A DNA stretch of 64,000 bases from a bacterium. GTDB taxonomy: Bacteria; Patescibacteriota; Dojkabacteria; SC72; WJKH01. The DNA is taken from positions 25,356 to 89,355 of the forward strand of contig JAKPPS010000056.1 of NCBI GenBank assembly GCA_029547225.1, given 5' to 3'. This document shows positions 1 through 32,496 of this stretch, piece after piece. The translations under genes and the position numbers were made by a program. How positions within the stretch are numbered: the stretch's first letter is position 1; every line of letters starts with the position of its first letter. The notes beneath the pieces are model-generated. The model saw only the letters and a program-made list of their open reading frames with translations, did not search any database and was not told the origin of the DNA.

Positions 1-630
1 TACTTTAAATTGATTAAAGACCTTTCGGATGCCTTACATGCGCGAGGAAAAACCCTTTCGGTTACTGTTATGGCTCAATGGCAAGATATCCAACAAGGGA
101 TGAGTCTACAAGACACCCGCAAGGTACAAGATTGGAATTATATCGGTCAATATGCTGATGAAGTTCGTATCATGGCTTATGATTACACTTGGCAAACTGC
201 TGAAAAACCTGGTCCGATTGCGCCAATTTCTTGGATCGAAGAAGTACTTAAGTTCGCAGTAAAACGCATACCTCGAGAAAAAATATGGCTTGGTGTTCAC
301 TTATCTAGTTATGAATGGATTGTTGAAGATAACAATATCGATTGGGATAAGTATAATATTGAAGAAATACCAGCAAGTACAACTCAAAGAGCTGTCTCGT
401 ACACTTACGATTCTATAATAAATCGAATCAGTATATTTGATAGCTTTAAAACAGCATATAATACTCGTTTTGAAGAGCAAATTGCCACATATGATTGTTA
501 CGATGGTCAAAAATGTGTTCTATTCTATCAAGTAAGTCGCGGAGTGACTGCACGAGAAAACTTAGCTCAAGAATACGGAATAAGGGGTATATATTACTGG
601 AGACTAGGGGAAGAAGGCGAGCTTCTATAA
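1..630 (+). CDS. Glycoside hydrolase family 18-like protein, C-terminal part (5' end lies outside the window)
   Basis: The frame is open back to base 1. The translation has GH18 C-terminal-type motifs (MAYDYTW, PGPIAPISW, IYYWRLGEE) like YaaH/chitinase-like hydrolases. The catalytic DxxDxDxE block would lie upstream of the window. Confidence 0.6.
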   Translation, partial: YFKLIKDLSDALHARGKTLSVTVMAQWQDIQQGMSLQDTRKVQDWNYIGQYADEVRIMAYDYTWQTAEKPGPIAPISWIEEVLKFAVKRIPREKIWLGVHLSSYEWIVEDNNIDWDKYNIEEIPASTTQRAVSYTYDSIINRISIFDSFKTAYNTRFEEQIATYDCYDGQKCVLFYQVSRGVTARENLAQEYGIRGIYYWRLGEEGELL

Positions 631-724
631 CCTTTCTCATGGCTCTTGAAATGACTATTCAGCAAAGCGAACAAGGATAATACAAATCGAACCAACACGA
701 TGACGATTATGATGATGATGTCTT

Positions 725-1606
725 CTACTGCCACAAACAAGTATTAGCTACACATTTACATTGTGCGTTTTCGTTCTTCTCGACTACAACACATAAAGTA
801 TTAACTCGTGGAGATGCAGAACATACTTCTCCATTACACCCACCAACATGACAGTCATTCTCAGTATTGCATTCACCTTGTTCCTGAGGCTTTTCAAAAA
901 GATCAAAGTTATTTTCACCCCAATATATGCTTAATTTTGAAGTATCACATTTTTTATCAGTTGAACATTTTGAAACTCCATCTATACATTCACATGTGTT
1001 ACATCCATCTTCAGCATGGAAAATGTCACCATTCATAAAGGTTGTATTACTATACCAGCAGATATCAAGTATTGTACCTTCAACTTCATTTTGCAGAGTA
1101 AACGCAAACTGTGGTGAAGGCTCGGTAACAATAGAAAGATTCGCAATCGTAAAATCAAGAGTAACTAGGCACTCCTTTGGATAATCCTGCATTTCTGGAT
1201 CAATCATAGCATTCAATGTGATGATATTTTTATTGCTGTCATAAGAGTAGAAACCAACTTGAGAAGGAGGTTCATTTGCATCAGTGCATTTTTGGATATG
1301 TTCGATAACAACCTTAAGCTCATTATTCTTATACGAGATAGAAGCAACATTGTATCCGAGAGGATTATTACGATTTTCAGCAGGTATAGTGCCCGATTTA
1401 TATTTATACTTGTAAGTAAGATCTTTCTTTGTAAATTCGCTATCTTGAGGAGACTGTATGAAATCAATATTGAAATTTCCGTTACCATCATTTTGATTTC
1501 TACCCAGAATATAATCAATCCACTGCGGTTTCAAAATGTAAATCGATCCCAAAGCACCGACTAAAAGTAAGAAAATCGTTATCACAACAAGCCATTCCTT
1601 TTTCAT
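725..1606 (-). CDS. Exported or membrane-anchored Cys-rich protein with a C-terminal eight-cysteine-cluster-like domain
   Basis: N-terminal hydrophobic anchor (WLVVITIFLLLVGALGSIYIL). The C-terminus ECNTENDCHVGGCNGEVCSAS..LCVVVEKNENAQCKCVANTCLWQ has 8 Cys in the CxxxxDC..GGCxGxxC..CxC..C..W pattern I recall for the eight-cysteine-cluster domain. Confidence 0.5.
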   Translation of the reverse strand: MKKEWLVVITIFLLLVGALGSIYILKPQWIDYILGRNQNDGNGNFNIDFIQSPQDSEFTKKDLTYKYKYKSGTIPAENRNNPLGYNVASISYKNNELKVVIEHIQKCTDANEPPSQVGFYSYDSNKNIITLNAMIDPEMQDYPKECLVTLDFTIANLSIVTEPSPQFAFTLQNEVEGTILDICWYSNTTFMNGDIFHAEDGCNTCECIDGVSKCSTDKKCDTSKLSIYWGENNFDLFEKPQEQGECNTENDCHVGGCNGEVCSASPRVNTLCVVVEKNENAQCKCVANTCLWQ

Positions 1607-1668
1607 ATTGACTTATTTTATCATTTTGAGCAGAATAATACCAGAACTAAGTTTCGCTAATATATTCT

Positions 1669-2583
1669 ATGACAGATTCTCATGCACACATAAGCATGCA
1701 ACCAATTTCAGACGATATCGAGAATATACTCCATGACTTTACTAGTAAAGGTGGCACGAAAATATTAAATGCTTCTTATGATTTACCATCAATCAACCAA
1801 GTTATCCTTGATAAGATTTCTATGAGCAATATTTTCCCTGACTTGATACTCACTTCAGTAGGGATCCACCCAGAAGAGTTTATTCCGACAACATTAACAA
1901 ATCATAATGATTCGCCATTAAACCAAAAATTTGATTCTTTTGAGAAAATGCGAAAAGCTTTAGATGAATACAATACACTTGTCAACAAAAACATAAAACA
2001 CATTAGTGCAATAGGAGAAACTGGTCTTGATTATCATTACTTTATAAATTCGGATAAAGAGGAAGATAGTAAATTAACGACAGATCAAATTGAAGAATTA
2101 ATCGAAATACAAAAAAACAGTTTTATCGAACATATAGAAATTGCTAAAAAAAAATCCTTACCGATGACAATCCATAGTAGGGAGAATTTTGGCGAAAATA
2201 GGTGCATCAAAGATGTCTTAAATCTCCTTTGCACAATCGGTAATGGAAAAATAGCCGCTTCTATACACAGTTATACAGGAGATATCGATCTGATTGATGA
2301 AATAATCGATCTAGGATATTACATCGGATTTAATGCCATATTAACATATAAAAGCGGTGAGAACATACGACAAATTGCATCTAAAACACCACTTGAACGA
2401 ATATTACTTGAAACAGATTGTCCAAGTTTGCCATTACATATTAAAGGTGCTCAGAAATACGGTACGCCAAGCGATATCGGATACATAGCTTCAGTACTTG
2501 CAGAGATAAAAAACATTTCTACAGAAAAGTTACTTTCGATCGTCGACGAAAACTTCAACAGAATATTTTGTAAAACTGTATAA
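1669..2583 (+). CDS. tatD: TatD-family metal-dependent hydrolase/DNase
   Basis: N-terminal DSHAH, IGETGLDYHY, TIHSRE and a C-terminal LLETDCP motif, in the order typical of TatD. Confidence 0.85.
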   Translation: MTDSHAHISMQPISDDIENILHDFTSKGGTKILNASYDLPSINQVILDKISMSNIFPDLILTSVGIHPEEFIPTTLTNHNDSPLNQKFDSFEKMRKALDEYNTLVNKNIKHISAIGETGLDYHYFINSDKEEDSKLTTDQIEELIEIQKNSFIEHIEIAKKKSLPMTIHSRENFGENRCIKDVLNLLCTIGNGKIAASIHSYTGDIDLIDEIIDLGYYIGFNAILTYKSGENIRQIASKTPLERILLETDCPSLPLHIKGAQKYGTPSDIGYIASVLAEIKNISTEKLLSIVDENFNRIFCKTV

Positions 2584-2592
2584 GTTTTTATG

Positions 2593-2642
2593 GTATGCCA
2601 CCAACCGTTTTACCAAACACGCTATCAACCCATGACTACCCA
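2593..2642 (-). repeat. Bipartite conserved motif, copy A (inverted relative to copy B)
   Basis: The plus strand reads GTATGCCACCAA(2593-2604)-N25-CCATGACTACCCA(2630-2642), which is the reverse complement of the arms at 18825-18874. Confidence 0.8.
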
Positions 2643-2738
2643 TGCACTTACTGTTACAAAATCTTATTCACATATTATAAACAAAGCATGAGAAATAGTA
2701 TTAATATTATTAAAAATCGATTGAAGAAATCTCAGTAC

Positions 2739-3902
2739 TTAATTTGAGAGTAGGGCAGAAATCTTTTTTCCAGAAATGTATTTTATGCTGTTGAATATCA
2801 AATATGCTTGACCGCCGAGAAATAATAGTAGGATAAACCAATCCTCAAAATTGTACAGCTCAAATGCTACATAAGTCTCACTCGGTACAAAGAAACTCGG
2901 TATTATTTGGAATAATTGCCCTATCACAGATATGATTGCAATAACGCTAAAAAATAATACAACCCAACCAAGTAGCGGAATTAACCACACTGTTGCAACA
3001 GCAAAGCATAACAATAATATTATTATGAATAGATCAATCTGCTCAGGATATTCGATCATAAACATTGGTATAGTAGCAATCACTATCAACGCTGTATCAA
3101 AAATGTAATCCCAAATCCGTTTATTCCGTCTATTCTTTAGAAGAATGCCATTATTAGTTTCAATTTTACTCAAATCACCATTTTCATCTTTTTTATTAAC
3201 ATTATTTGAAATATTTCGCATCAAATTCCCATCATTATCCTTTTCTAGTATTCCATTAAAAATATCATGCATACTATTTTTTACAGCATCATAATTATCT
3301 TGATTGCAAAAAAGTATGCCAACTCGTCTCCATGAATTATAAAGTGAAATTACCCTTGAGTTTTTATCAAATATTACTTGATCAATATCTGAAAAATTAA
3401 CATATTGTTTCTCCTGAGAGATAGATGTCAAACCTGTACCAACAGCACCTATCTTACCTGAAATTAACCCAAGAGCTACCAATGAACGATTCCCAAATTT
3501 TGCTTTTGAACTTGTAACCTCCATCATGACTCCATTATTATCTAGTGTAAATCGCATCGGCATTTTATTTCCGTAAAAAAGTACCATCACAATTAAAGAA
3601 ACAATGTAAAGTCCTCCAACTATAAGTGTTGTCATTAACATCATTGGTGGTATAGCCTCGATTTCATCCGTACCAACAAAAGTTAGAGTCATCAGTAAGG
3701 CCATTACAAGTCCGGTTATACCAAAGAGTTTGAGCATTTCTGACATAACTATCTTATTTGTAACCAAAGAGACATCTTTTGTCCAAGTAATCTCTCTGAA
3801 ACTTTCTGTTTTCTTAATAGTATTCTTACTACTTTTAGATTTCTTCCCTGCCATTTGTTTTAAACCAAATAACTTAGCTATCGATGATAAATTATCTATC
3901 AT
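2739..3902 (-). CDS. Multi-pass membrane protein, unknown function
   Basis: Long ORF with at least 6 hydrophobic segments and a basic N-terminal tail (KLFGLKQMAGKKSKSSK). No motif recognised. Confidence 0.55.
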   Translation of the reverse strand: MIDNLSSIAKLFGLKQMAGKKSKSSKNTIKKTESFREITWTKDVSLVTNKIVMSEMLKLFGITGLVMALLMTLTFVGTDEIEAIPPMMLMTTLIVGGLYIVSLIVMVLFYGNKMPMRFTLDNNGVMMEVTSSKAKFGNRSLVALGLISGKIGAVGTGLTSISQEKQYVNFSDIDQVIFDKNSRVISLYNSWRRVGILFCNQDNYDAVKNSMHDIFNGILEKDNDGNLMRNISNNVNKKDENGDLSKIETNNGILLKNRRNKRIWDYIFDTALIVIATIPMFMIEYPEQIDLFIIILLLCFAVATVWLIPLLGWVVLFFSVIAIISVIGQLFQIIPSFFVPSETYVAFELYNFEDWFILLLFLGGQAYLIFNSIKYISGKKISALLSN

Positions 3903-3910
3903 TTATTATA

Positions 3911-4606
3911 TTAAATACTAAAGTCTGCTTTTGCTATTATAACAACAAATTCTCCACGCAGCTCAGACTCTTTTTCCAATGTATCAATTAATTTTGAAAG
4001 CCTGTCTGTTTTGATATATTCATACATTTTTGTTAAATCATTAGAAATAGACGCATACCTATCCCCATAAGCTTTCTGACATGATTTCAGAAGTGATACA
4101 ACTCTTAAGGGAGATTCATAGAAAATTATTGATCCAGTATCATTCACATATTGTGTTAATAGATCTTCTCTTGATTTCTCATTTTTCGGAGGAAAGCCCA
4201 GAAAAACGAACCTGTCTGTAGGTAAACCACTTGCACAAAGTGCCGTGCTACCTGCAAAAGCTCCTGGCAACGGAATCACTTTATATCCCGCTTTGATAAC
4301 ATCTCTTACTAATTTATAGCCAGGATCCGAAAGAGTAGGGGTTCCTGCATCGCTAATAAGTGATAAATTAAGGCTCATTTTCATTTTCTCAAGTACTTTA
4401 TCTATAAGTGTTTCGTGTATTTGATCTCGATAGGAAATCATTTGAGCCTTAATATCATATTTCTTTAATAATTGAGCGCTATGGCGAGTATCTTCAGCAA
4501 GGATAAAATGAGAATTTTTAAGAGTCTCGACAGCTCTAAATGTAATATCACTCATATTCCCTATAGGTGTCGGTACAATAAATAATGGCATTTTGCAACT
4601 AATCAA
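3911..4606 (-). CDS. rsmI: 16S rRNA (cytidine1402-2'-O)-methyltransferase
   Basis: LFIVPTPIGNMSDITFRAVETLKNSHFILAEDTRHSAQLL and a tetrapyrrole-methylase-like fold pattern typical of RsmI. The true start may be the internal Met (MPLFIV). Confidence 0.85.
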   Translation of the reverse strand: MISCKMPLFIVPTPIGNMSDITFRAVETLKNSHFILAEDTRHSAQLLKKYDIKAQMISYRDQIHETLIDKVLEKMKMSLNLSLISDAGTPTLSDPGYKLVRDVIKAGYKVIPLPGAFAGSTALCASGLPTDRFVFLGFPPKNEKSREDLLTQYVNDTGSIIFYESPLRVVSLLKSCQKAYGDRYASISNDLTKMYEYIKTDRLSKLIDTLEKESELRGEFVVIIAKADFSI

Positions 4607-4681
4607 TCAATTTATTTAAAAAGCAATTGTAGCTTTTTCGAAAATAGATAATATTCATAAAATTTCCTATCTCGATTTCAC

Positions 4682-5749
4682 TTATGCTTGTGAATACGAC
4701 TGAACAGAAATCAAATAATCAAGTATATTATCAATATCAATTTTATCATATTTTAGTGCATTGCGGATTTCAAATTGCCATATCCGTACCCGACGCAAAG
4801 CAGTACATGTTGCATAACATCCTAAATCGTTGCCGATGTCCCTGACCAGAGATCGAATATAAGTACCACTACCACAAGTAACTTCCAGACTTATATAAGC
4901 ACCGTTACGCGCGACCTTGTCAATACTATGTATTTGCACTTTTGAAGGCTTCAGATCTACTTGAATATTCTTTCTAGCAAGATCATACGCTCGAACTCCA
5001 TTTACCTTCTTTGCTGAATATTGAGGAGGAGTTTGCATTATTTCGCCGACATATTTTCTTGATACATCTATGATTCTTGTATCAATATCTGGGATCTTCT
5101 TTTCTATGTAATCTTTCAAAATTGAATTAATTTCTTCCTGTATTTCTTTGTTATTGACGCATTTATCATTTTCAAGTCTACTTAGATCTTTGCTACATAA
5201 TATCTCTTTTGCAAGTATTGGGTCTTGCGAATTAATTGGTGGACAAACATAAACTCCGCTTTTACTATTTAATATTTCGATTATCCTCTCAGACTGTAAA
5301 TCGGCATCATAATCAGTTACCTTACCATCAATATCTAGAGTATCTGTCTGTAAGCCAAGCACCATTTCGACTCGATATGTTTTACTATGTTTTAAAGTTT
5401 GCTCAAAAAGTTTTGTGGCTTTTCCAATAAGTATAATTACTAGACCTGACGCAAATGGATCTAGCGTGCCACCATGCCCAATTTTTAGTTTCTTACTATC
5501 ATTACTAAATCGACCTTCTTTTATTGAATTGTAATATTTATGTTTAATTTCTCGGATAATATCATATGTTGTAATCCCTGCAGGTTTATCGATTAACAGT
5601 ATTCCATTTAAATCCAACTCACTGATTTGTTTACGAACCTGATTTCTTGAATCATTAAATTTCTGGATTTGCTCTGCGATATATTTATCATCTGTATTAG
5701 AATCGATAGAGATAGAAAATGATTTTCCGTAATTGTTATTCTGTACCAC
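4682..5749 (-). CDS. truB: tRNA pseudouridine(55) synthase, with N-terminal extension and an internal insertion
   Basis: GILLIDKPAGITTYD and the catalytic-Asp block GHGGTLDPFASGLVIILIGKATKL. The C-terminal part is PUA-like. Confidence 0.85.
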   Translation of the reverse strand: MVQNNNYGKSFSISIDSNTDDKYIAEQIQKFNDSRNQVRKQISELDLNGILLIDKPAGITTYDIIREIKHKYYNSIKEGRFSNDSKKLKIGHGGTLDPFASGLVIILIGKATKLFEQTLKHSKTYRVEMVLGLQTDTLDIDGKVTDYDADLQSERIIEILNSKSGVYVCPPINSQDPILAKEILCSKDLSRLENDKCVNNKEIQEEINSILKDYIEKKIPDIDTRIIDVSRKYVGEIMQTPPQYSAKKVNGVRAYDLARKNIQVDLKPSKVQIHSIDKVARNGAYISLEVTCGSGTYIRSLVRDIGNDLGCYATCTALRRVRIWQFEIRNALKYDKIDIDNILDYLISVQSYSQA

Positions 5750-17612: not shown

Positions 17613-18743
17613 ATGGATAACAAAAACAACACTGAGGCGAAGATATACTCACTCAAGGACCTAAAAAACGGTAAATATCAGATTTCAATTAATATTGAGC
17701 GTGAAGCATTTAATAAATCATATAAAGCTAATCTTGAAAAGCAAGCAAAGACAGTTGAGATTAAAGGATTTAGAAAAGGAATGGTTCCCACATCAGTTAT
17801 CGAAGAAACAATGAAAGATGCAATCCTCAAAGATACTTTTGAAAAATTAGCACCTAACCTTGTTATGTACGCATTACAAGATGCAAAAATCTCTCCTCTT
17901 GTACCTGTAAAATACCTTGGTATTCCAAGCTTTGATGGCAACGAAGATTTACATTTTGAAGTCGAAATTATTAGTGTTCCTAAATTCACAATATGCGACC
18001 TAAAGAAGGTCAAAGTTGCAAAGAAGGATTCAAAAGTAACAGATAAAGAATTAGAGGAAACTGTAAACGCTATGTATGATAATCAGATAAAAGCAGATGA
18101 GAAAGCTTCAGAAAATAATTCTGTTGACTCAAAAAAGAAAGACACAACGAAGAGAGAAATAGATGATAAATGGGCAACAACAATTGCTGGTAAATATCAA
18201 ATAAAAGGTGTGACTTCACTTGCAAAACTGAAGGAAGAGATTAAAAAACTTCTTGAAGCAAAGAAGGTTGAATTGATTGAAAGAGAATTTGAAAGAGATA
18301 TTCTTTCCGAAGCAGTAAAACTTTCAAAAATTCAGATTCCTGATGAGGCAGTAGAATATGAACTGGCTGAGCGAGAGCATTCATTTATGCACCAACTTGA
18401 AGATATGAAAATCAGTATGGATCAATATCTCCAAGCATACAATATTACCGAAGAAAAACTGAAAGAAGCGTGGAAGGTTGATTCTAAACAAGCTATTGAA
18501 GAGCATGTGCTACTTACCGAATATGCAAAAAATGCCGAGATAAAGTTTGACGAGAATGAATTTGTACAATTTATTCAAAATTCTGGAGCTCCAAAAGAAT
18601 ATATGCAGAATTACAATTGGCTTCAAAGTATGCAAAGCGTTTATTTCAAAAATAAAGCTTTCGAGAAACTTCTCTCTGAAGTTAAAACTAATTTAGGTGT
18701 CGCTGACAGCACACCAAAGAAAAAAATAGAATTAATTAGCTAA
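17613..18743 (+). CDS. tig: Trigger factor lacking a recognisable PPIase domain
   Basis: N-terminal ribosome-binding domain with GFRKGMVP. The C-terminal arm domain is recognisable, and the position upstream of clpP is conserved. At 376 aa, the FKBP segment is replaced by a charged linker. Confidence 0.8.
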   Translation: MDNKNNTEAKIYSLKDLKNGKYQISINIEREAFNKSYKANLEKQAKTVEIKGFRKGMVPTSVIEETMKDAILKDTFEKLAPNLVMYALQDAKISPLVPVKYLGIPSFDGNEDLHFEVEIISVPKFTICDLKKVKVAKKDSKVTDKELEETVNAMYDNQIKADEKASENNSVDSKKKDTTKREIDDKWATTIAGKYQIKGVTSLAKLKEEIKKLLEAKKVELIEREFERDILSEAVKLSKIQIPDEAVEYELAEREHSFMHQLEDMKISMDQYLQAYNITEEKLKEAWKVDSKQAIEEHVLLTEYAKNAEIKFDENEFVQFIQNSGAPKEYMQNYNWLQSMQSVYFKNKAFEKLLSEVKTNLGVADSTPKKKIELIS

Positions 18744-18824
18744 CCAACTGTATAAGTTCTATCATAGAAATAGCTTCGATTATTGAAGTAGTAACGTACA
18801 CAAGATCATTTATGGCAAAAAGCG

Positions 18825-18874
18825 TGGGTAGTCATGGTGACGGATAATCTTATGCAAGTTGCTTGGTGGCATAC
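18825..18874 (+). repeat. Bipartite conserved motif, copy B (TGGGTAGTCATGG-N25-TTGGTGGCATAC)
   Basis: Exact 13-mer (18825-18837) and 12-mer (18863-18874) separated by 25 nt. The reverse complement of 2593-2642 has identical arms and identical spacing, with an unrelated spacer. Confidence 0.8.
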
Positions 18875-18975
18875 TATGAATTATAATGTATTAGTATTTG
18901 CAAAGAGTGAGATTTATGCGGATGATTTCGTTTGCACAAAAGCTTGCCAATAAATAATATTATAGAAGGAAGGTT

Positions 18976-19551
18976 ATGTTGATTCCAACAGTTATCGAAA
19001 AAAATCGTGAGGGTGATTACGCTTATGATATTTATTCACGCTTACTTAAAGATCGAATTGTTTTTGTATCTGGAGCAATTGATACTGAGATGTCAAATAC
19101 AGTTGTTGCTCAATTACTTTTCCTTGAGAAAGAGGATCCAAAAGCCGATATTCAGATGTTTATTAATTCGCCAGGCGGTGTTGTTTATGCAGGTATGGCA
19201 ATACTTGATACTATGCAATATATAAAACCCGATGTATCAACAATTTCCGTAGGTATGTCCATGTCCTTTGGTACTATACTTTTAGCAGCAGGCACAAAAG
19301 GTAAAAGATTTGCCTTACCAAACAGTATAATCCATCTGCATCAACCTTTAGGTGGGGCAGAGGGGCAGGCTAGTGATATAGAAATTACCGCACGAGAGAT
19401 TTTAAGAATTAAAGCCGATCTGTACAAAAAGCTTTCAAGCTACACAGGGCGCACTGTCGCAGAAATAGAAAAAGATGCTGATCGAGATCGATATTTCACC
19501 GCAGAAGAAGCAAAGAAATATGGGTTAATTGACAAGATACTTAATAAGTAA
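18976..19551 (+). CDS. clpP: ATP-dependent Clp protease proteolytic subunit
   Basis: Full-length ClpP pattern: [29 protein letters not shown], the Ser/His/Asp context ([16 protein letters not shown]), and [17 protein letters not shown]. Confidence 0.92.
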
Positions 19552-19801: not shown

Positions 19802-19878
19802 GGACGGCTAGCTCAACTGGTTAGAGCACTTCATTGACATTGAAGAGGTTACAGGTTCAAGTCCTGTGTCGTCCACCA
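19802..19878 (+). tRNA. tRNA-Val (anticodon GAC), CCA encoded
   Basis: Manual cloverleaf: acceptor ggacggc/gtcgtcc, D arm gctc-aactggtta-gagc, anticodon arm cttca-ttGACat-tgaag (GAC at 19836-38), T arm acagg-ttcaagt-cctgt, then discriminator A and CCA. Confidence 0.9.
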
Positions 19879-20616: not shown

Positions 20617-22500
20617 ATGAGTACAACAAATAAACCAGAAATATCATATCTAGATTTACAGAACAATTCAAAAGAAAATACATCTTCAGGAAAAGAAATC
20701 CTCGTAAAAGAATCTGATGATTTTTTGAATTTGAGTTTGGAAAGATTAGTGAGAACTGCAAAATCATCAGCAGTTGACATGATGTCCCAAGATGAAGATA
20801 AAGAAAATGAAAGGCCCAATCAGTTGATTTCCATAATTCAAGAATTCGTAGCGAATCAACAAGATATTCTAATCGAACTGTCATCAAAAATACCTATTAC
20901 ACAACTTGAAATGGCCATACAGAGAAGATTGCTTACAGCAGGAAAGATGTTTATTCCAATAGTAGTACCGAAATTCGATAAAAGAAATGGATCAGATTAT
21001 TTTGCTTCAACTCAATTATATATTTTAGAGCAATTAAGAGCGATATTTAAATATTATGGTATAGAAGGTTGCGATGAACTACTTGCTGATCCAAACAAAG
21101 ATGACATTTCAAATAATGAAGATTATTCTGCAAGAATTGAACAACTTCTTAAAACTGCAATTGATTTACTATCCTTTTCAGACAATAATTTCCTACATGG
21201 AAACAGTTCGAAGGTAATAATAATCACTCAAGATGACGGAAGGAAGGATAGTCAGATTTATCCTGTTTGTTTTCAACATAATCCTAATGACGAAGGAAAT
21301 AATAGAGCCTTAGCCGATGACAGTATAATACGAATCAGCATTAAGGATGATATGACAGCTACTCCAGGCATTAATCCTTCAGAATTACAACAATATTATT
21401 CTACAACCTTCGGAAAAGTTTACAAACCATCTTCAATTACTTTTTACCCAACACATATAACTAATTGGCATGAAAGGATCATAAACGACATGCGTCCTTT
21501 AGACAGTACAGCACTTAGAGCAATTCTTTTGGAGGTTGAATTTATTACCCACGGAGATTTCAGAGCTTCCATTGCAATGTTAGAGCATATGCAGGATATT
21601 TTCCCTCAACTATATAGAAGAATTATGCAGCACTTATATGTAGATAATACTGGTTTTTATAGCGCAGTGGATCTTCAAGATCAGAAGCTATTAAAACAAT
21701 TATACGAAAGATACTTCGAAGAGGAAATTGTACATATTAATAGACTCTTGACTTTCTTAAAACGAGATGGATTATCACGTTTCATTTCTGAGGAGCCATC
21801 AGAAGATAAACGACTTCTATCTCGTAAAGATATCTGTATGATATATAGTATTGCTGCACAGTTCAGAGATGAATCTGCGTACCCAAATGTCTTTATAATC
21901 AATCAATTAATTGCAGAAATTATTGCAAAAGCCTTTTATTACAATTATTATTTTCAAACCGATGGACAAGGATTAGACCTTGTGCATATAACTAAAATTA
22001 CACGATCAATACTTGGATGCGCATTGAATACAGAGGATAGATACTCACAGACACATCGAGATACACTTTTACAGAATCTTTCAAACTTTGATTATTCCCA
22101 CTATTCGGATACTTTCAACGATCTGTATCCAGTAATAAAAATATTAGATGTGTATATGATAGAAATTTTTTCAAAAATATCACCTATGAATCAAGAGGTA
22201 GGATATTTTCATGGACCTGATTCCTATGAACAAATCTTCATAAGCCCGTTTGCTCTTGATTGGCTATTGTTTTGTTACAATATTAAAATGGCAGAAAAGG
22301 CTAAACCTCATAACAATAACACTTCCGATACTACAGATGATTCAGCCGGTGAATCGCCATCTGAAACAAGAAAAACTCCAGATAGGCAATCAATTACATC
22401 CGTAAACCAGAAAGCACTTGACCGTTTGATATATACTATTATAACAAGATTCCCACCAAAGTATGAAGGAGTCTCTCGGACATTTGGAGGTCGAATTTGA
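20617..22500 (+). CDS. Large soluble orphan protein (627 aa), unknown function
   Basis: Uninterrupted 1.9-kb ORF in AT-rich DNA with its own promoter-like element. It has no TM segments and no motif I recognise. Both termini are low-complexity. Confidence 0.6.
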   Translation: MSTTNKPEISYLDLQNNSKENTSSGKEILVKESDDFLNLSLERLVRTAKSSAVDMMSQDEDKENERPNQLISIIQEFVANQQDILIELSSKIPITQLEMAIQRRLLTAGKMFIPIVVPKFDKRNGSDYFASTQLYILEQLRAIFKYYGIEGCDELLADPNKDDISNNEDYSARIEQLLKTAIDLLSFSDNNFLHGNSSKVIIITQDDGRKDSQIYPVCFQHNPNDEGNNRALADDSIIRISIKDDMTATPGINPSELQQYYSTTFGKVYKPSSITFYPTHITNWHERIINDMRPLDSTALRAILLEVEFITHGDFRASIAMLEHMQDIFPQLYRRIMQHLYVDNTGFYSAVDLQDQKLLKQLYERYFEEEIVHINRLLTFLKRDGLSRFISEEPSEDKRLLSRKDICMIYSIAAQFRDESAYPNVFIINQLIAEIIAKAFYYNYYFQTDGQGLDLVHITKITRSILGCALNTEDRYSQTHRDTLLQNLSNFDYSHYSDTFNDLYPVIKILDVYMIEIFSKISPMNQEVGYFHGPDSYEQIFISPFALDWLLFCYNIKMAEKAKPHNNNTSDTTDDSAGESPSETRKTPDRQSITSVNQKALDRLIYTIITRFPPKYEGVSRTFGGRI

Positions 22501-22702: not shown

Positions 22703-23572
22703 ATGAAAAAGGGAATATTTATAGCAATCATATCAGGAGTATTAATAACAGGAGTAATAGGAGGAATATTGCTTTTCAAATATTTAATATTACCCAATTA
22801 CTCACAAGATAAAAAAGAAGACAATAAAACAACTCAAGAAGAAGAACAAAAAGATAGTACAAAATCGGACACTAACAAAAAATCAGACACAAACACCAAT
22901 AGTGAAAACAATAAACAAAACAATGAAAACAGTACAACTCCTAAAATAATAATTACAAGTCCAGAAGCACAAACTAATATCGATGGAAAATTTTTAGTAA
23001 CAGGAGAAGCATTAGCAACCTTGCAAGAAGTGACAATACATGTCCAAGATGATGAGGGGACAATACTTGGACAAGTAATAGCAGGACTTGCTAGCGGAGA
23101 TCCCAATCCTATGCACGGAATATATCAACAGATACAATTAAACAAATCACCTATGACAAAGACGGGTAAAATAGTTGCTTATCCAACAAGCGAAAGTTCA
23201 GATAGTCAGGATCGGGTAGAAGTACCGATAGCATTTGAAGCTGGATTAAGTGCAGAAAGATTAATTGTGTATTCACCTATCAAAGAGATGTATTATCAAG
23301 GTGGCGAAACGACAATATGGGGACAGATGCAAGATTTCTTTGAAGGTACAGGATATGTAAAATTGCTAAACAGTAATGGTGGGACATTGTGGGAAGGTTC
23401 ATTTACATCGTTATCCGAAAATTATAATCAGTTTGCAGATTTCTCATACACATTTGACATGGGACAAATACCTTTGGCAGCTGGAGATGAAGCAAAATGG
23501 GTATTCTATGATGTAAGCATGCAAGATGGATCAACTTCTATACTTGTGGAAATTCCAGTTCAGATTCATTAG
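22703..23572 (+). CDS. Membrane-anchored or exported protein with two Gmad2-like Ig-type domains
   Basis: An N-terminal TM/signal anchor is followed by a Lys/Asn/Thr-rich linker and two repeats of the pattern xIxSPxx..G.a..fFEgt..v.l.d..G (IIITSPEAQTNIDGKFLVTGEA...; LIVYSPIKEM...QDFFEGTGYVKLLNSNGGTLWEG). Confidence 0.45.
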   Translation: MKKGIFIAIISGVLITGVIGGILLFKYLILPNYSQDKKEDNKTTQEEEQKDSTKSDTNKKSDTNTNSENNKQNNENSTTPKIIITSPEAQTNIDGKFLVTGEALATLQEVTIHVQDDEGTILGQVIAGLASGDPNPMHGIYQQIQLNKSPMTKTGKIVAYPTSESSDSQDRVEVPIAFEAGLSAERLIVYSPIKEMYYQGGETTIWGQMQDFFEGTGYVKLLNSNGGTLWEGSFTSLSENYNQFADFSYTFDMGQIPLAAGDEAKWVFYDVSMQDGSTSILVEIPVQIH

Positions 23573-23768: not shown

Positions 23769-23797
23769 TTGAAACCGTTTTAAAAATATTGTATAAT
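23769..23797 (+). promoter_or_regulatory. Sigma70-like promoter abutting the start codon (possible leaderless mRNA)
   Basis: TTGAAA (23769-74), a 17-nt spacer, then TATAAT (23792-97). The first ATG at 23804 lies 7 nt after the -10 element. Confidence 0.45.
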
Positions 23798-24220
23798 ACT
23801 TTTATGAATTCTACAGATACTGCCATAAAGGAACCACTCAGTCCAGCATATCAAAGTATTACAATACACAATCAAAGTTCTTTACCAAAAGTAGCACTAC
23901 TTTGGGTTAAAGATTTTTTTTACTGGTGGTATTTAAAGATGCCCGTTTTTCACCTTCTTACACTCAGGCGAATAGTAATTGTATTAAATGATCAACTCTC
24001 ATTTTCACTTTTATTGAGGACTTTCTTTACTCCTTGGAAACGAGATAGGAGGGCAACTGGATATTTTGTCGGGATTACAATTAGATTAATCTATCTTCCA
24101 ATAGCTTTTTTTGCAATTGTATTTGCAGTCATATTGTATATCGCATTTATTATTTTCTGGGTTACACTACCAATTATTACTTTTATTTTACTTATCGCTA
24201 CACCGTTTCTACCAATTTAA
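23789..24220 (+). CDS. Small membrane protein upstream of the Clp-like ATPase, unknown function
   Basis: 2-3 hydrophobic helices in the C-terminal half. The TTG at 23789 lies inside the promoter element, so the ATG at 23804 (MNSTDT) is the more plausible start. Confidence 0.55.
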   Translation: MYNTFMNSTDTAIKEPLSPAYQSITIHNQSSLPKVALLWVKDFFYWWYLKMPVFHLLTLRRIVIVLNDQLSFSLLLRTFFTPWKRDRRATGYFVGITIRLIYLPIAFFAIVFAVILYIAFIIFWVTLPIITFILLIATPFLPI

Positions 24221-24273
24221 TACATGATACACTTTGTTAAATTATTAAGCGTTTTGGATAATTACAGATTTAT

Positions 24274-27006
24274 ATGGGAACATTAAGAACAAATAGTAAA
24301 ACCAACCTTCTTGGATATCATGATAAAAGCACCAACAAAGTTGGACTGATGGATCAGGATCAACTTCCAATGCTGATAGATGAAAATTATGCACCGTTTC
24401 TGACAACAAGAGATCATAATTTTGTAATTGCAACACCTGAAATCAAATCAATGATTCAGAATTTTGCTATCACTAAAAATTTTAGGAAGGTTAAAAATAA
24501 TATTGCATCGATATTATTAATCCCTGGTCTTATTATTTCAATAGGTTATATCTTAAAACTGTTTGGATTCTTTGACGATATTTCATTAATAAACAATATA
24601 TTTTCAAATAAATTACTGAATATGTCATTCTGGATAGCTGTACTTGGAATCCTAGTTTTATGGCACGATACTTATCGAAACGAGATACACCCGATACAAT
24701 TACCACAATCGCCCTTAATACCTGAAAAAGAAATTGACCAGATAAAAACGTACGGATTTAAATTCACAAGATATGTAGAACTTGGCACTTGTGGTTTTGT
24801 CTCAGAAGAACTCCAGCAATTTCTCGCTGCAAATACACATGAAGATAATCTCAATTCGCTAAGACTTTTTAATGAACTACTTAAAATTGAAGAGATTGAG
24901 CGAATAATCAAACGATCTAACCTTGATCTAAATCAATCTCAGTATGAAAAATACGATATTAGCAAAGCTACAATACCTGATTATCCTCTGACAGCTGTAA
25001 GATGTTTGCTTACTTATGCGCTCCAAGAAGCAATTTTGACTAAATCACCATCTATCCAGCCTGCTCACATTTTCCTTGCATACTTCAAAGTTTTTCCAAT
25101 CCTCAAAAAATATTTACAATCAAAGAATTCGTCTATAGAGATCATGCGTGAAGTCGAAAGGTATTATCAAGAGGAGAAAAGTCATAATCAAAGCGTAAGT
25201 TTTTTTAATCCTAAAACAAAATATTATCGTACAGGCGGAATAGGGCGAGATTGGATATATGGTTGGACTTATTACCTCGGTAAATTTAGTACAGATTTGA
25301 CTCAAGAAATAATTGGGGTAGATAAAGTATTTGGTATTGGTCATGAAAAAGAGGTCGAGGCAATAGTATCAATTATTGGAAGATTATCAAAAAAAAATAT
25401 ATTATTAATCGGTGAGGCCGGTACAGGTAAATCAAGCCTGATCAAGGGACTGGCACAGAGGATTAACCTCGGGAATGTACCTCCTCAACTTCAAAACAAG
25501 AGGATTATCCAACTTGATCTTACTCAATTGCTTGCTCTCTCAAGTAATGAAAATAACGGCGGAAGTAGTATGGGAGACCAACTTAAAAGAGCACTCGATG
25601 AACTTGCCAAAGCTGGAAACACAATTCTATATATTGATGAGATACAGGAGATAATACCAGCAAAATCAGAGTCAACTGGTCAAAGCATAGCTTCTATAGT
25701 ATTACCATATATTCTGGAAGGAAAATTTCCTGTAATTGGCACGATAAACTATTCTGACTATAAAAAATATTTTTATTCAAATGAATCTTTACGACAAGGT
25801 TTTGAAAATGTTGAAGTAGCAGAACTTTCTCCGAGAGACACTATGTATATTATTGAAAGCCAGATAGATCAACTGGAAGAGAACTATAAACTTTACATTA
25901 CTTTCCCTGCTATTACAGCATCTATTGAATTAGCTCAAAGATATATTTCTAGTCGTAAATTACCTGATAGTGCAGTCAGAGTTATAGAAGCTTCATGTTC
26001 TTGGGCTCAATCTCAAAATATTAAAGTTTTGACCAATGAGCATGTTTCAAAATATATTTCTATACAAACCAATATCCCCGTCGAAAGCATTACAGCCGAA
26101 GAAGCTACTCGCCTTATGAATCTTGAACAAAATATTAAATCAAGAGTAATCGGTCAAGACGAGGCCGTACATGCTATCGTAGAGTCTCTAAAGCGCTCAA
26201 GAACCGATGTAAGAGATCCAAACAAGCCAATCGGTGTATTTTTATTTCTCGGGCCCACAGGTACTGGTAAGACACATTTGGCTAAAGTTATTTCGGAAGA
26301 ATATTTTGGATCTAAAAGCGATATTATCAGGATTGATATGTCAGAATACCAGGACATCAAGAGTATCGACAAATTACTCGGAGTTTCCGGATCAACGGAT
26401 ACATTATCTCAACAAGCTATTTCTCTATTAGATAGAGTAAAATCAAATCCATACACTGTAGTATTATTTGACGAAATAGAAAAGGCGCATCCTCAAATAT
26501 TAGATCTTTTCTTACAACTATTTGATGAAGGTAGATTAACAAGCAATTCTGGTGAAACAGTTAATTTTACAAACACAATTATCATATCAACAAGTAATAT
26601 CGGAAGCAGATTATTACTTGAAGCTCTACAAAAAGATCGTTCATTGTGGGAAGAAGCAAAGGGTAGGGCAATAATTGAACTCCGCCAAGCCATTCGTCCT
26701 GAATTGCTAAATAGATTTGATGGAGTAATTGTATTCGCTCCACATACAATACAAAATCTTATTAAGATTACTGAAATCCTATTAAACGAAATGGCCAAAA
26801 GAATGCTCGAGAAATCTATCACACTTAAGTGGGATAATACCATTCCTATGATTATTGCTGATAAAGCACAGGAACCGGGACTTGGTGCAAGACCTTTAAA
26901 AAGATTTATTCAGGAGAAAATTGAAGGAAAGCTTGCAACGGAAATTATATCCGGCAGCATCAAAAACGGCGATACAGTTGACATACGTGAGAGCTGGTTA
27001 AACTAG
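24274..27006 (+). CDS. Double-ring Clp/Hsp100-family AAA+ ATPase with N-terminal transmembrane segments
   Basis: D1 has Walker A GEAGTGKSS and Walker B ILYIDEIQEI. D2 has GPTGTGKTHLAK, VVLFDEIEKAHP and ARPLKRFIQ. There is no long ClpB-type middle domain, and I see no IGF/LGF-type ClpP-docking tripeptide. Two hydrophobic helices lie near the N-terminus (IASILLIPGLIISIGYILKLFGFF; MSFWIAVLGILVLW). Confidence 0.8.
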   Translation: MGTLRTNSKTNLLGYHDKSTNKVGLMDQDQLPMLIDENYAPFLTTRDHNFVIATPEIKSMIQNFAITKNFRKVKNNIASILLIPGLIISIGYILKLFGFFDDISLINNIFSNKLLNMSFWIAVLGILVLWHDTYRNEIHPIQLPQSPLIPEKEIDQIKTYGFKFTRYVELGTCGFVSEELQQFLAANTHEDNLNSLRLFNELLKIEEIERIIKRSNLDLNQSQYEKYDISKATIPDYPLTAVRCLLTYALQEAILTKSPSIQPAHIFLAYFKVFPILKKYLQSKNSSIEIMREVERYYQEEKSHNQSVSFFNPKTKYYRTGGIGRDWIYGWTYYLGKFSTDLTQEIIGVDKVFGIGHEKEVEAIVSIIGRLSKKNILLIGEAGTGKSSLIKGLAQRINLGNVPPQLQNKRIIQLDLTQLLALSSNENNGGSSMGDQLKRALDELAKAGNTILYIDEIQEIIPAKSESTGQSIASIVLPYILEGKFPVIGTINYSDYKKYFYSNESLRQGFENVEVAELSPRDTMYIIESQIDQLEENYKLYITFPAITASIELAQRYISSRKLPDSAVRVIEASCSWAQSQNIKVLTNEHVSKYISIQTNIPVESITAEEATRLMNLEQNIKSRVIGQDEAVHAIVESLKRSRTDVRDPNKPIGVFLFLGPTGTGKTHLAKVISEEYFGSKSDIIRIDMSEYQDIKSIDKLLGVSGSTDTLSQQAISLLDRVKSNPYTVVLFDEIEKAHPQILDLFLQLFDEGRLTSNSGETVNFTNTIIISTSNIGSRLLLEALQKDRSLWEEAKGRAIIELRQAIRPELLNRFDGVIVFAPHTIQNLIKITEILLNEMAKRMLEKSITLKWDNTIPMIIADKAQEPGLGARPLKRFIQEKIEGKLATEIISGSIKNGDTVDIRESWLN

Positions 27007-27301
27007 ATATTTCAGCATTTTACCAAAGAATAATCATTATCGATTTAAACAAGTGAGTATCCTGTTTTTTGTATCCGAGCGCTACCCGCAAACACATCTC
27101 TGCCCATCGCTATAAAATCGCTTTCAGAAGGCGATCATTGTCACAATTCAAACAATAAAAAAATTACAGAAATTAGTAGTATCGTTATATTTAAGTAGCT
27201 CGAAATAAATAATTTTGACTGAATAGTAAATGAAATTAGGTTTTGGTTTAGTTCGATTATTGCCATCAGGAATTGTAGAAATAAATAATTTAAAATAGCA
27301 G

Positions 27302-27330
27302 TTGATATATTTCGTAAAATTAATTATAAT
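27302..27330 (+). promoter_or_regulatory. Sigma70-like promoter of the rpmF-nusB-rnc-rpsP-KH gene string
   Basis: TTGATA (27302-07), a 17-nt spacer, then TATAAT (27325-30). The rpmF ATG is at 27364. Confidence 0.5.
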
Positions 27331-27363
27331 AACGAGAATCTACTAATTTGAATACGTAAAGAA

Positions 27364-30855: not shown

Positions 30856-32496
30856 TTAATTAGACGTTTCTCCGCTTGTTTTATTTTTAAAATAATCATA
30901 ATTAAGTTGACCTTCAAACTCGAAAGTAGTTTTATTAGCATATGATCCAACCGAATTAAGATTTACAATATTAACACGCGAATCCATACTGAGCAGATGC
31001 CACAATTTTGCAACATCCGTTAGTGAACTTGCCTCACCGCGAACAATAAAATGCAAATCAGGGTCCAACTCAATATTACTAATCTTACCCAATTTTGAGC
31101 TTACCTGATCCCAATACTCAAATACTTCACGATAAGAAACAGTATTTTGCTGGATAGAGTCAAAAAGTTTTATTCGTCGTAGTATGTAAGAGTTCTTTGT
31201 AAGTGTATCCTGATCTTGTAATACTTCTTTTTCAATCCTTGTTAATATTTTTTTCTGACCTTGGTTTTCTAACTTTGCTATAAAATTTGATCCGATGATC
31301 CCAATCGAGAGTAATACCAAAACCAAAATAAATACTGCGCCTGCAATGTTAAAACTGGCTTTTCGTTCATTTCGTGCAATTTCATCCGATGTAGCAGGTG
31401 GCAAAAGATTTATTCCTTCATTAATGTTTAATATTAATGGATTATCTTTTTTGTCAACCGATACTTGGCTTTTCTTCTTAGAAAATAAACCAAGCCCATT
31501 TTTCTTTTTTAAAGATTTATTCTTATTATTCTCGTTTACTTTTGTCTCATCGACTTTTATTTCATCTTGAACTTCGTCTTTCTTTAATTCTAGATTTACT
31601 TCGTCTTCAGGTTGATCTGCAATGTTAACACTGTTTTCTGTATTTGAATTCGAGATTTCTGACTCTTCAGTTAAAGCACTTACGACAACAGGATCTTTAA
31701 CAATTGCCTCAATCTCAGGCTTGATATCAATACTATCTTTTTTCTCGGTTAGCTCAACATTTTGTACTGGGGCTTCGGTTTCTGGAATTTTCTCAGGTAT
31801 GACATTCATAACTTCATCGGCTACAACACCTATCGTTTCAGTATTATCTGTTAACGCAATTTCTGATTTCTCCTCAGTTTTGACAGGATTTTCATTATTT
31901 TCTATTGCAAGTTTTTGGTCATCAGTCACTTTGATTTCTGGGTTATCCACGACAACATCTGATTTTGTTTCTTTCTTTTTAAAAAGCTTACTAAATATTG
32001 ATTGTCGTTTTGGTTTCACTTCCTTCATTTTTGTGTTTGCTTCGGGAGTAGCTTCAATGTTACTGCTTTCTTGAGTATCATTTTTTTCTAAGTCAGAAGC
32101 AATCTGGGTGACCTCAGTATTTGTTTCTGTCTGGCTTTTATCTGTAGTATCATCAGCAACTTCGTCAAAAGTTTCTCCACCTAATCCCTTTTTTTGTTCT
32201 TTATCACTAGTGTCCTCTATACCCATCTCCGATTGAGGTACATCTGCAACGGGTAAAGTTGCCTCACTGCCAGTATCGTCTGTATTTGGGGTACTAGGAG
32301 AGCTCACATTACCCACTGAAACGGATTGAGAGCCTTCCGAAATATTCACTGGTGCTTTTTCATCAGCTTTCGAAGTATCCGGACTTATTGGAGTCTCCGT
32401 TTGGCCATCATTTAGCACCGTTTTTAGCGCCTGATCAAGCTTAGCCTTATCTTTATCATCTATCTTTTTTTTACTAAAAATACTTAGGATTCCCAT
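30856..32496 (-). CDS. pilN: PilN-like protein with an acidic low-complexity N-terminal extension of about 355 aa
   Basis: An INLLP motif (EGINLLPP) lies immediately before the single TM (IAGAVFILVLVLLSIGIIG), followed by a PilN-type periplasmic domain. The ORF stays open from 24 nt downstream of the pilM stop. Confidence 0.6.
   Translation of the reverse strand: MGILSIFSKKKIDDKDKAKLDQALKTVLNDGQTETPISPDTSKADEKAPVNISEGSQSVSVGNVSSPSTPNTDDTGSEATLPVADVPQSEMGIEDTSDKEQKKGLGGETFDEVADDTTDKSQTETNTEVTQIASDLEKNDTQESSNIEATPEANTKMKEVKPKRQSIFSKLFKKKETKSDVVVDNPEIKVTDDQKLAIENNENPVKTEEKSEIALTDNTETIGVVADEVMNVIPEKIPETEAPVQNVELTEKKDSIDIKPEIEAIVKDPVVVSALTEESEISNSNTENSVNIADQPEDEVNLELKKDEVQDEIKVDETKVNENNKNKSLKKKNGLGLFSKKKSQVSVDKKDNPLILNINEGINLLPPATSDEIARNERKASFNIAGAVFILVLVLLSIGIIGSNFIAKLENQGQKKILTRIEKEVLQDQDTLTKNSYILRRIKLFDSIQQNTVSYREVFEYWDQVSSKLGKISNIELDPDLHFIVRGEASSLTDVAKLWHLLSMDSRVNIVNLNSVGSYANKTTFEFEGQLNYDYFKNKTSGETSN

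Follow-up and report, generated by a model that had tools for sequence, protein, structure and literature searches.

We analyzed two adjacent genes in a 64,000-nucleotide (nt) stretch of a Dojkabacteria contig (JAKPPS010000056.1; hereafter, the window), a low-GC (33%) part of a small bacterial genome. The downstream gene encodes a two-ring Clp/Hsp100-type ATPase of 910 amino acids (aa) that appears to be membrane-anchored (24274..27006), and the upstream gene encodes a small membrane protein; both genes, the domains that they encode and the promoter-like site ahead of them are on the forward strand. The preferred interpretation, to which we assign about an even chance, is that the two proteins form a ClpP-independent membrane remodeling complex that would be driven by the second AAA+ ring (D2) and would act without canonical substrate threading. 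A first-pass annotation of this DNA, made from the sequence without database searches, reported two open reading frames (ORFs), 23789..24220 and 24274..27006, spaced by 53 nt, and both are present as described.

Scanning one genome per GTDB species with a profile of the ATPase N-terminal region yielded 77 loci in Dojkabacteria. A homolog of the small protein is encoded directly upstream of the ATPase gene, on the same strand and with a gap of −10 to +11 nt, in all loci with enough upstream DNA (73/73), and the array rpmF-nusB-rnc-rpsP-KH lies downstream of the ATPase gene in 68 of 70 loci. When 1.84 billion representative proteins were searched exhaustively with a profile of this N-terminal region, only 51 clusters were found; those beyond Dojkabacteria include Clp-like ATPases of 800-860 aa with two N-terminal transmembrane (TM) helices. 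Two of the wider-family members are named by NCBI as 'Patescibacteria group bacterium', and the taxonomic breadth outside Dojkabacteria rests on few named records. In one distant patescibacterial relative (P0282), the gene located 48 nt upstream encodes a homolog of the small protein (E = 2.5e-15), and another family member (P0290) carries the small-protein module as an N-terminal fusion to the ATPase. When metagenomes were scanned with the small protein as the seed (three-sequence alignment), 80 loci were recovered, 56 of these with enough downstream sequence; the ATPase gene is adjacent in 34, fused in-frame in 5 and located just downstream in 16, in some of them behind an inserted PD-(D/E)XK gene, so that 55 of the 56 testable loci are paired. 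Three fusion architectures were found in independent samples (L128 type, L140 type and L081). The other neighbors vary between lineages (mraZ/mraW, rplL, ferredoxin, CsoR-like repressor, ZIP transporter), which leaves the pair as the sole conserved unit. Thus, the co-occurrence of the two genes in relatives, on which the pairing suggested by the first-pass annotation depended, holds across species, metagenomes and fusions, and the conclusion that the ATPase and the small membrane protein are genuinely paired in one conserved operon-like unit appears well supported.

In some metagenome loci (L136, at 4432-4809, as well as L137, L148, L149 and L157), an ORF of approximately 126-132 aa lies between the small gene and the ATPase gene; the ORF in L136 matches the PD-(D/E)XK_3 nuclease family, and the insert looks like a selfish insertion into the operon. 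The fused form in L081 (7420-10391, encoding P0290) is followed by PrgI-like, TraC-like and TraG/VirB4-like genes, a type IV secretion-like cluster. Many Dojkabacteria-type loci with identical synteny (L004-L080) carry the ENA label 'uncultured Candidatus Saccharibacteria bacterium', and one wider-family cluster member is labeled 'Candidatus Pacearchaeota archaeon'; these labels probably reflect taxonomic mislabeling or mis-binning.

The small protein (138 aa, 23804..24220) consists of a variable N-terminus, a conserved region with the pattern WWY..MP...R...D.LS..LL..FF.PW[HK]RD, and a tail of about 48 hydrophobic residues without any charge, which is long enough for a two-helix hairpin. The first-pass annotation was right in calling a membrane protein upstream of the ATPase but gave it a length of 143 aa; because the homologs are 131-138 aa long, translation most likely starts at ATG 23804 rather than at TTG 23789. 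All 306 homologs are annotated as 'hypothetical'. The AlphaFold model of the small protein is made of helices (predicted local distance difference test, pLDDT, 85.6), and its comparison with the PDB using Foldseek gave no significant fold match. No family for this protein is present in Pfam, NCBIfam or PADLOC, where matches are at the noise level only (e.g. DUF2062, E = 0.07). With FFxPW[HK]RD as its sharp signature, the small partner constitutes a new protein family.

The ATPase was characterized by Pfam and NCBIfam matches, homolog alignment and comparison with solved structures. Two complete AAA+ modules, as noted in the first pass, were recovered, namely D1 (aa 350-590, 25321..26043) and D2 (aa 600-820, 26071..26733), followed by a C-terminal ClpB_D2-small domain (aa 827-904, 26752..26985); the Pfam matches are AAA_2 (aa 651-816, 8.6e-47), ClpB_D2-small (aa 827-904, 1e-19), AAA_lid_9 (aa 520-585) and AAA in D1. 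Tandem AAA+ modules, with the second one of the AAA_2 type and followed by ClpB_D2-small, are the hallmark of class I of the Clp/Hsp100 superfamily, and the nearest solved relatives by sequence alignment are ClpB (E = 1e-111), ClpC and ClpA. Close homologs are about 900-910 aa long (query coverage 99-100%, identity 50-64%), those with a named source come from Candidatus Dojkabacteria (WS6, within Patescibacteria, or the Candidate Phyla Radiation), and they are annotated as 'ClpA', 'ClpC' or 'AAA family ATPase'. However, the NCBIfam models for ClpB, ClpA, ClpV, ClpK and ClpG match the window ATPase at only 20-45% of their curated cut-offs: 466.7 bits vs. 1232.1 for the ClpB equivalog (TIGR03346), 432.5 vs. 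993.15 for ClpA (TIGR02639), 384.8 vs. 884.95 for ClpV/TssH (TIGR03345), and 378.9 and 389.2 vs. 1900 for ClpG and ClpK (NF033607 and NF033606, respectively). For ClpV/TssH, the genomic context does not fit either, the neighbors being housekeeping genes, not type VI secretion genes. The ClpA model covers aa 241-904 in one stretch, which implies that the ATPase lacks a middle domain (M-domain), and in the alignment to solved structures, ClpB residues ~390-511 (1qvr) have no counterpart, the query being contiguous at 575/576; the earlier claim that no ClpB-type middle domain is present is thus upheld. Judging by fold and domain order, the ATPase is a member of the Clp/Hsp100 superfamily, but it does not qualify as a ClpA, ClpB, ClpC, ClpV or ClpG/K protein.

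The N-terminal 340 residues of the ATPase are conserved family-wide, with invariant G14, H16, K18, E37, F42, T45, P84-G85, F119 and P144. The first six of these invariant residues belong to a small beta-rich cytosolic domain (aa 1-62, 24274..24459) that is specific to the Dojkabacteria branch and absent from the wider Patescibacteria family. It is followed by a two-helix TM hairpin (aa 64-138, 24463..24687) comprised of TM1 (~76-99, including P84-G85), an external loop that is short and poorly conserved (0.44), and TM2 (~113-131). The two hydrophobic helices, which had been proposed in the first pass, are supported by Kyte-Doolittle peaks at about aa 76-99 and 113-131, by helices 64-96 and 113-138 in an AlphaFold model of the N-terminus (11-sequence alignment, pLDDT 78.6), where they lie between a small beta domain (aa 11-51) and a helical domain (aa 150-307), and by their conservation across 64 species. 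Lysines and arginines together average 4.2 ahead of TM1, 0.8 within the loop and 2.9 beyond TM2, a pattern that, under the positive-inside rule, fits a hairpin with both termini in the cytoplasm, the orientation that the ATPase domains require. The helices had been said to lie downstream of every plausible start codon; this is so for the in-frame ATGs at codons 1, 26, 33 and 60, all ahead of TM1, but not for a further ATG at codon 117, at the start of TM2. The invariance of G14, H16 and K18 nevertheless indicates that translation begins near codon 1 and that the helices are part of the protein, as the first-pass annotation presumed. The anchoring of the ATPase in the membrane via this N-terminal hairpin therefore appears well supported.

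Downstream of the hairpin lies a helical, putatively Clp_N-like domain (aa 150-307, 24721..25194) that was not part of the first-pass annotation. The best PDB matches of its AlphaFold model in Foldseek are Hsp100 N-domains, those of Plasmodium HSP101 (4iod/4irf), ClpC and ClpB, but the E-values are weak (for 4iod, probability 1.0 and TM-score 0.57, in a range of 0.5-0.57, with E at least 0.067). Clp_N is not among the listed Pfam matches for the window ATPase, and PF02861 is precomputed on some homologs; the start of the ClpA model at aa 241 corresponds to the second Clp_N repeat, and in the relative P0282, this model aligns from model position 4. Between the Clp_N-like domain and D1 is a conserved linker (aa 316-345, 25219..25308; mean identity 0.76), GGIG[KR][DE]W.YGYT..L..FS.DLT, which is a signature of the whole family, in Dojkabacteria and the wider Patescibacteria alike. 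The window ATPase has all the features by which we propose to define this family, i.e. the TM hairpin, the GGIGxxWxYGYT linker, the loss of the pore-loop tyrosines and of the D1 'RR' motif, and a partner encoded upstream or fused.

The pore-loop tyrosines of class I Clp/Hsp100 proteins (KYRG in D1 and GYVG in D2) are absent from the ATPase. The degenerate D1 pore loop (aa 422-435, 25537..25578) reads LSSNENNGGSSMGD instead of GAKYRGEFEE and contains no aromatic residue, and the degenerate D2 pore loop (aa 703-715, 26380..26418) reads GVSGSTDTLSQQA instead of GAPPGYVGYEEGG. For D2, the first-pass annotation had reported that the GAPPGYVG segment is replaced; alignment to ClpB and ClpC bears this out, with GVSGSTDTLSQQ in the place of this segment, and the replacement is family-wide. 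Across the family, the aromatic fraction is 0 in the D1 pore loop and at most 0.3 in the D2 pore loop. When conservation was measured in 12-residue windows within aa 350-904 (mean 0.75-0.77), the D1 pore loop turned out to be the least conserved segment of the ATPase core (0.35) and the D2 pore loop the second least conserved (0.41), whereas the pore loops of canonical Hsp100 proteins rank with their most conserved elements. Within Dojkabacteria, the D2 loop varies, and in most wider-family members, the GYVG segment is shortened or absent. In addition, the D1 'RR' arginine fingers (ALERRFQ) are replaced throughout the family (SLRQGF in the window ATPase). The absence of the D1 pore-loop tyrosine and of the D1 arginine fingers, as well as the low conservation of the pore loops, had not been noticed in the first pass. 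The loss of the tyrosines together with the free drift of both pore loops makes processive polypeptide threading unlikely and suggests that the pair probably works differently from the known Clp machines.

These findings bear on the membrane-protein extraction or quality-control machine proposed in the first-pass annotation, taken here as a canonical extractase or unfoldase that would thread clients from the bilayer through its pore, like FtsH or Msp1, and without ClpP. The N-terminal TM hairpin, with an FtsH-like geometry that places the entry (N-domain/D1) face toward the membrane, the intact ATPase motifs, the putative Clp_N-like substrate or adaptor domain, and the retention of the D2-loop tyrosine in some wider-family members are all compatible with such a role. 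However, a canonical threading extractase needs the pore-loop aromatic residues that are missing here in both rings; furthermore, no segments of the motor are under less constraint than the pore loops, which are shortened in many relatives, the D1 arginine fingers are missing, and catalytically dead orthologs, described below, persist at the same genomic position. On balance, we consider an extractase of this kind to be unlikely.

The catalytic motifs present a different pattern from the pore loops. In D1, Walker A (GEAGTGKSS) and Walker B (YIDEIQE) are intact; in D2, so are Walker A (GPTGTGKTH), Walker B (LFDEIEKA), sensor-1 (N775) and the arginine finger (R814), and sensor-2 (GAR, R873) is found in the C-terminal domain. 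Walker A and B of both rings and the D2 sensor-1, arginine finger and sensor-2 are retained in all 64 full-length sequences from Dojkabacteria species; outside this branch, the D1 Walker B is degenerate in many members. The first-pass annotation had listed the D1 Walker A sequence as a deviation from the Hsp100 norm; the motif is there, but the difference is trivial, as the sequence is that of a normal P-loop, with GEPGVGKSS as the consensus of the family, and we rejected it as a meaningful feature.

Five rare cluster representatives (P0246, P0247, P0253, P0263 and P0268) have lost the D2 Walker B, sensor-1, arginine finger and sensor-2 and, in part, the D1 motifs (decayed ATPases at L163, 8001-10565; L164, 8001-10820; L166, 1660-4116; L167, 495-3239; and L168, 6001-8658). 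The decayed ATPases keep the N-terminal region, and synteny is kept where the flanks are visible (L163, L164 and L166); given this region and the same syntenic slot, we take them to be orthologs. The PW[HK]RD motif of the upstream small protein is intact in 60 of 63 pairs with a canonical family ATPase and in none of the five pairs with a decayed one, an observation that goes beyond the first-pass annotation. This co-loss suggests that the partner motif is tied to the catalytic function of the ATPase, and it is a further argument for the pairing.

The same loci are pertinent to another explanation, namely that the ATPase is mainly a structural, nucleotide-stabilized ring that scaffolds the small partner or some other membrane assembly, with hydrolysis secondary or regulatory, as in a Torsin-like switch or an emerging pseudo-enzyme. 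Such a role would be consistent with the degenerate pore loops, with the lack of D1 arginine fingers and the degeneration of the D1 Walker B in many wider-family members, and with the five lineages in which the D2 catalytic residues are gone, yet the N-terminal membrane region and synteny persist. Conversely, the presence of all D2 catalytic motifs in 64/64 Dojkabacteria species sequences is indicative of purifying selection on hydrolysis, and the partner motif decays along with the ATPase, which looks like joint loss of function; a mainly structural ring therefore seems distinctly unlikely.

One of the loci with a decayed ATPase, L168, additionally encodes a canonical soluble Hsp100 of 805 aa (603-3020, reverse strand), only 3 kb from the membrane-anchored family member. 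It keeps KYRG, ALERRFQ, GYVG and a short M-domain and seems to lack an obvious VGF loop. The presence of a canonical Hsp100 beside a family member implies that the motif loss is specific to the membrane form and does not reflect general sequence drift. Judging from this locus, the membrane form is a specialized paralog that coexists with the soluble form in at least one genome.

The first-pass annotation found no ClpP-docking loop in the ATPase, and this holds: the query has a gap where ClpC has the VGF-bearing segment KRNKYVGFNVQDETQ, no docking insertion follows TSNIGS of D2, and no [ILV]G[FL] insertion was seen in the wider-family alignment. The missing docking loop makes a complex with ClpP unlikely. 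Across genomes, clpP lies within 4 kb of the pair in only 8 of 58 species loci and is not linked to it in the wider family. The current database annotation implies instead an ordinary ClpC or ClpA ortholog that activates ClpP and is merely tethered to the membrane. Apart from the annotation itself ('ATP-dependent Clp protease ATP-binding subunit ClpA/ClpC'), this possibility is favored by the gene order, in which, both in the window and in several relatives, tig-clpP precedes the pair by 1-5 kb on the same strand and clpX does not follow clpP, and by the window ClpP (18976-19551), which appears to retain the Ser-His-Asp residues, as read from its translation. Nevertheless, in view of the absent docking loop, scores far under the ClpA, ClpB and ClpV equivalog cut-offs, the absent pore-loop tyrosines, and the rarity of clpP linkage among species and its absence in the wider family, we regard a ClpP activator as extremely improbable.

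The membrane remodeling complex that we favor would consist of a hexamer of the Clp/Hsp100-type ATPase and the small membrane protein, embedded in the membrane, with the N-domain/D1 face set against its cytoplasmic side in an FtsH-like arrangement. D2 would serve as the hydrolytic motor, whereas D1 would mainly bind nucleotide and hold the ring together, and the complex would operate without ClpP. The targets of the ATP-driven ring movements would be the small partner and those membrane-associated clients that are bound by the Clp_N-like domain or the partner, the likely coupling element to the ATPase being the cytosolic WWY...PW[HK]RD region of the partner. The action would amount to local remodeling or short-range pulling at the membrane, as opposed to the processive hand-over-hand threading by ClpA, ClpB and ClpC.

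Several points weigh against this interpretation. The D2 loop of a few wider-family members still contains 'AGY', and threading may persist in these; moreover, non-aromatic pore loops could still be able to grip substrate. The loss of catalytic residues in the rare orthologs suggests that the role of the ATPase may be partly structural, and the association between loss of PW[HK]RD and loss of catalysis (Fisher p = 5e-6) is uncorrected for phylogeny. Finally, the case for ClpP independence is built on the missing docking loop only.

The membrane-embedded part of the complex could also be given a more active role. In a 6:6 complex, roughly 24 TM helices might form a channel aligned with the pore of the ATPase, through which the ring would drive protein or non-protein cargo across or into the membrane; HSP101-EXP2 and Bcs1 would be analogues. 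TM hairpins are contributed by both subunits, which are sometimes fused; the N-domain finds its best structural match in that of HSP101 from the Plasmodium translocon of exported proteins (PTEX); polar, non-aromatic pore loops might suit unusual cargo; and Patescibacteria depend on the uptake of building blocks. However, there is no sign of a pore, the external loop is short and poorly conserved, the polarity of Hsp100 rings, with entry at D1, would draw cargo away from the membrane, and the HSP101 match is a generic Clp_N similarity (E = 0.067), so that a conduit motor appears very unlikely. A further reading, which we find decidedly doubtful, is a previously unrecognized kind of bacterial membrane AAA+ machine, an Hsp100-derived motor that no longer threads and in which D2 hydrolysis would drive a ring of about 24 TM helices, built with the obligate partner, for a membrane task specific to Patescibacteria; such a task could be, for example, the handling of lipid or other non-protein cargo, gating of a conduit, or envelope remodeling at the contact with a host cell.

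Compared with ClpA, ClpC and ClpB, the window ATPase shares D1 AAA with AAA_lid_9, D2 AAA_2 with ClpB_D2-small, a putative Clp_N-like N-domain, and the D2 Walker A and B, sensor-1, arginine finger and sensor-2; with ClpA, it also shares the domain order, the model aligning in a single stretch. It differs from all three in having an N-terminal TM hairpin and an obligate small membrane partner, in lacking the KYRG and GYVG tyrosines and the D1 RR fingers, and in scoring at 35-45% of the equivalog cut-offs; in addition, unlike ClpB and ClpC, it has no M-domain and, unlike ClpA and ClpC, it has no IGL/VGF ClpP loop. With FtsH, a housekeeping membrane AAA+ machine as well, it has in common two N-terminal TM helices that set the ATPase ring under the membrane so that its entry face points to the bilayer. 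However, the single AAA ring of FtsH is fused to an M41 metalloprotease and has aromatic pore loops, whereas the window ATPase has two rings, ends with ClpB_D2-small and has no aromatic pore loops; M41 is not among its listed Pfam matches. HSP101 of PTEX, likewise an Hsp100, operates at a membrane in concert with membrane proteins and independently of ClpP, and its chains 6e10 and 6e11 are among the sequence matches of the ATPase. Yet, HSP101 itself is soluble, keeps the pore-loop tyrosines and the M-domain and docks on the EXP2 pore, in contrast to the window ATPase, which is itself predicted to be inserted in the membrane.

Torsins are relatives of ClpB D2 that are single-ring, lumenal and eukaryotic and have no arginine finger of their own, which is supplied by the partner. 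The Torsin family PF06309 matches the ATPase with 31.5 bits, at profile positions 14-89 of 127 only, around the D2 Walker A, which does not qualify it as a Torsin. Torsins are associated with membranes, require a transmembrane partner, LAP1 or LULL1, and have pore loops without aromatic residues (PMC5425593). The window ATPase resembles them in the lack of aromatic pore loops and in having a membrane partner but differs in having two rings, a D2 with its own arginine finger, and a small helical membrane protein as the partner. Msp1/ATAD1 and Bcs1 form AAA rings with an N-terminal anchor, and their action on membrane proteins involves no protease; they are single-ring members of the classic clade, eukaryotic or mitochondrial, Msp1 with aromatic pore loops, and have no sequence relationship to the window ATPase beyond the AAA fold. 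A Dodola-like defense system was also considered and rejected: the DolB match is partial, covering D2 only, the small protein, which would have to be the DolA partner, has no PADLOC match, and the locus is a core housekeeping one in all species.

In the literature on Clp proteins of Patescibacteria or Dojkabacteria and on membrane-bound Clp ATPases, we found no description of a membrane-anchored Clp/Hsp100 pair, and none of the family libraries searched (Pfam, NCBIfam and PADLOC) describes a family of membrane-anchored ATPases with a small partner protein. The annotation of these proteins as 'ClpA/ClpC, ATP-dependent Clp protease ATP-binding subunit' is probably misleading. Hsp100/Clp ATPases are soluble threading machines defined by their pore-loop tyrosines; a whole lineage that appears to be membrane-inserted and has lost both tyrosine loops and the D1 fingers while keeping D2 intact would be a natural test of what an Hsp100 ring does without threading. 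In Dojkabacteria, the pair is a core gene set linked to housekeeping genes, and it also occurs widely among other Patescibacteria, tiny and uncultured bacteria in which a large share of the proteome, above all membrane proteins, has no assigned function.

The gene order in the window is tig, clpP, tRNA-Val, cupin, two unknowns, the small gene and the ATPase gene, followed by rpmF, nusB, rnc, rpsP and a KH protein gene and then by pilO/N/M on the opposite strand. A functional link to the pilMNO or tig-clpP neighbors was considered and rejected because the linkage is not conserved outside Dojkabacteria. Rfam and tRNA scans found nothing at the locus itself, the sole match in the window being the tRNA-Val at 19802. 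A promoter-like site, TTGAAA-17-TATAAT (23769..23797), precedes the small gene and matches at 11 of 12 positions, but the total number of such sites in the region equals the chance expectation, making this weak evidence. TTG 23789 falls within the −10 box of this site, which ends 6 nt upstream of ATG 23804, so that the mRNA of the small-protein/ATPase operon may be leaderless.

In the window, the spacer between the stop codon of the ATPase gene and rpmF (27007-27363) is 357 nt long, compared to ~60 nt in 68 of 70 related species; it contains two promoter-like sites, at 27260-27289 and 27302-27330, and no RNA family or tRNA was detected in it. At tig-clpP, clpP is not followed by clpX in the window (17613-19551) or, as far as the loci extend, in L001, L003, L163 and L164, and in all five cases, the next AAA+ gene on the same strand is that of the membrane-anchored ATPase, 1-5 kb downstream. 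The window further contains, between clpP and the pair, a 627-aa ORF without a Pfam family (20617-22500) and a gene for a 289-aa protein (22703-23572) with an N-terminal TM helix, an Asn/Ser/Lys-rich low-complexity linker and a Gmad2 Ig-like domain, neither of which is conserved at this position in relatives. In the pilM/pilO interval, the ORF in the pilN position (30856-32496, reverse strand; 546 aa) is unusually long for a PilN-like protein, with an acidic, low-complexity N-terminal extension of ~380 aa ahead of the TM helix.

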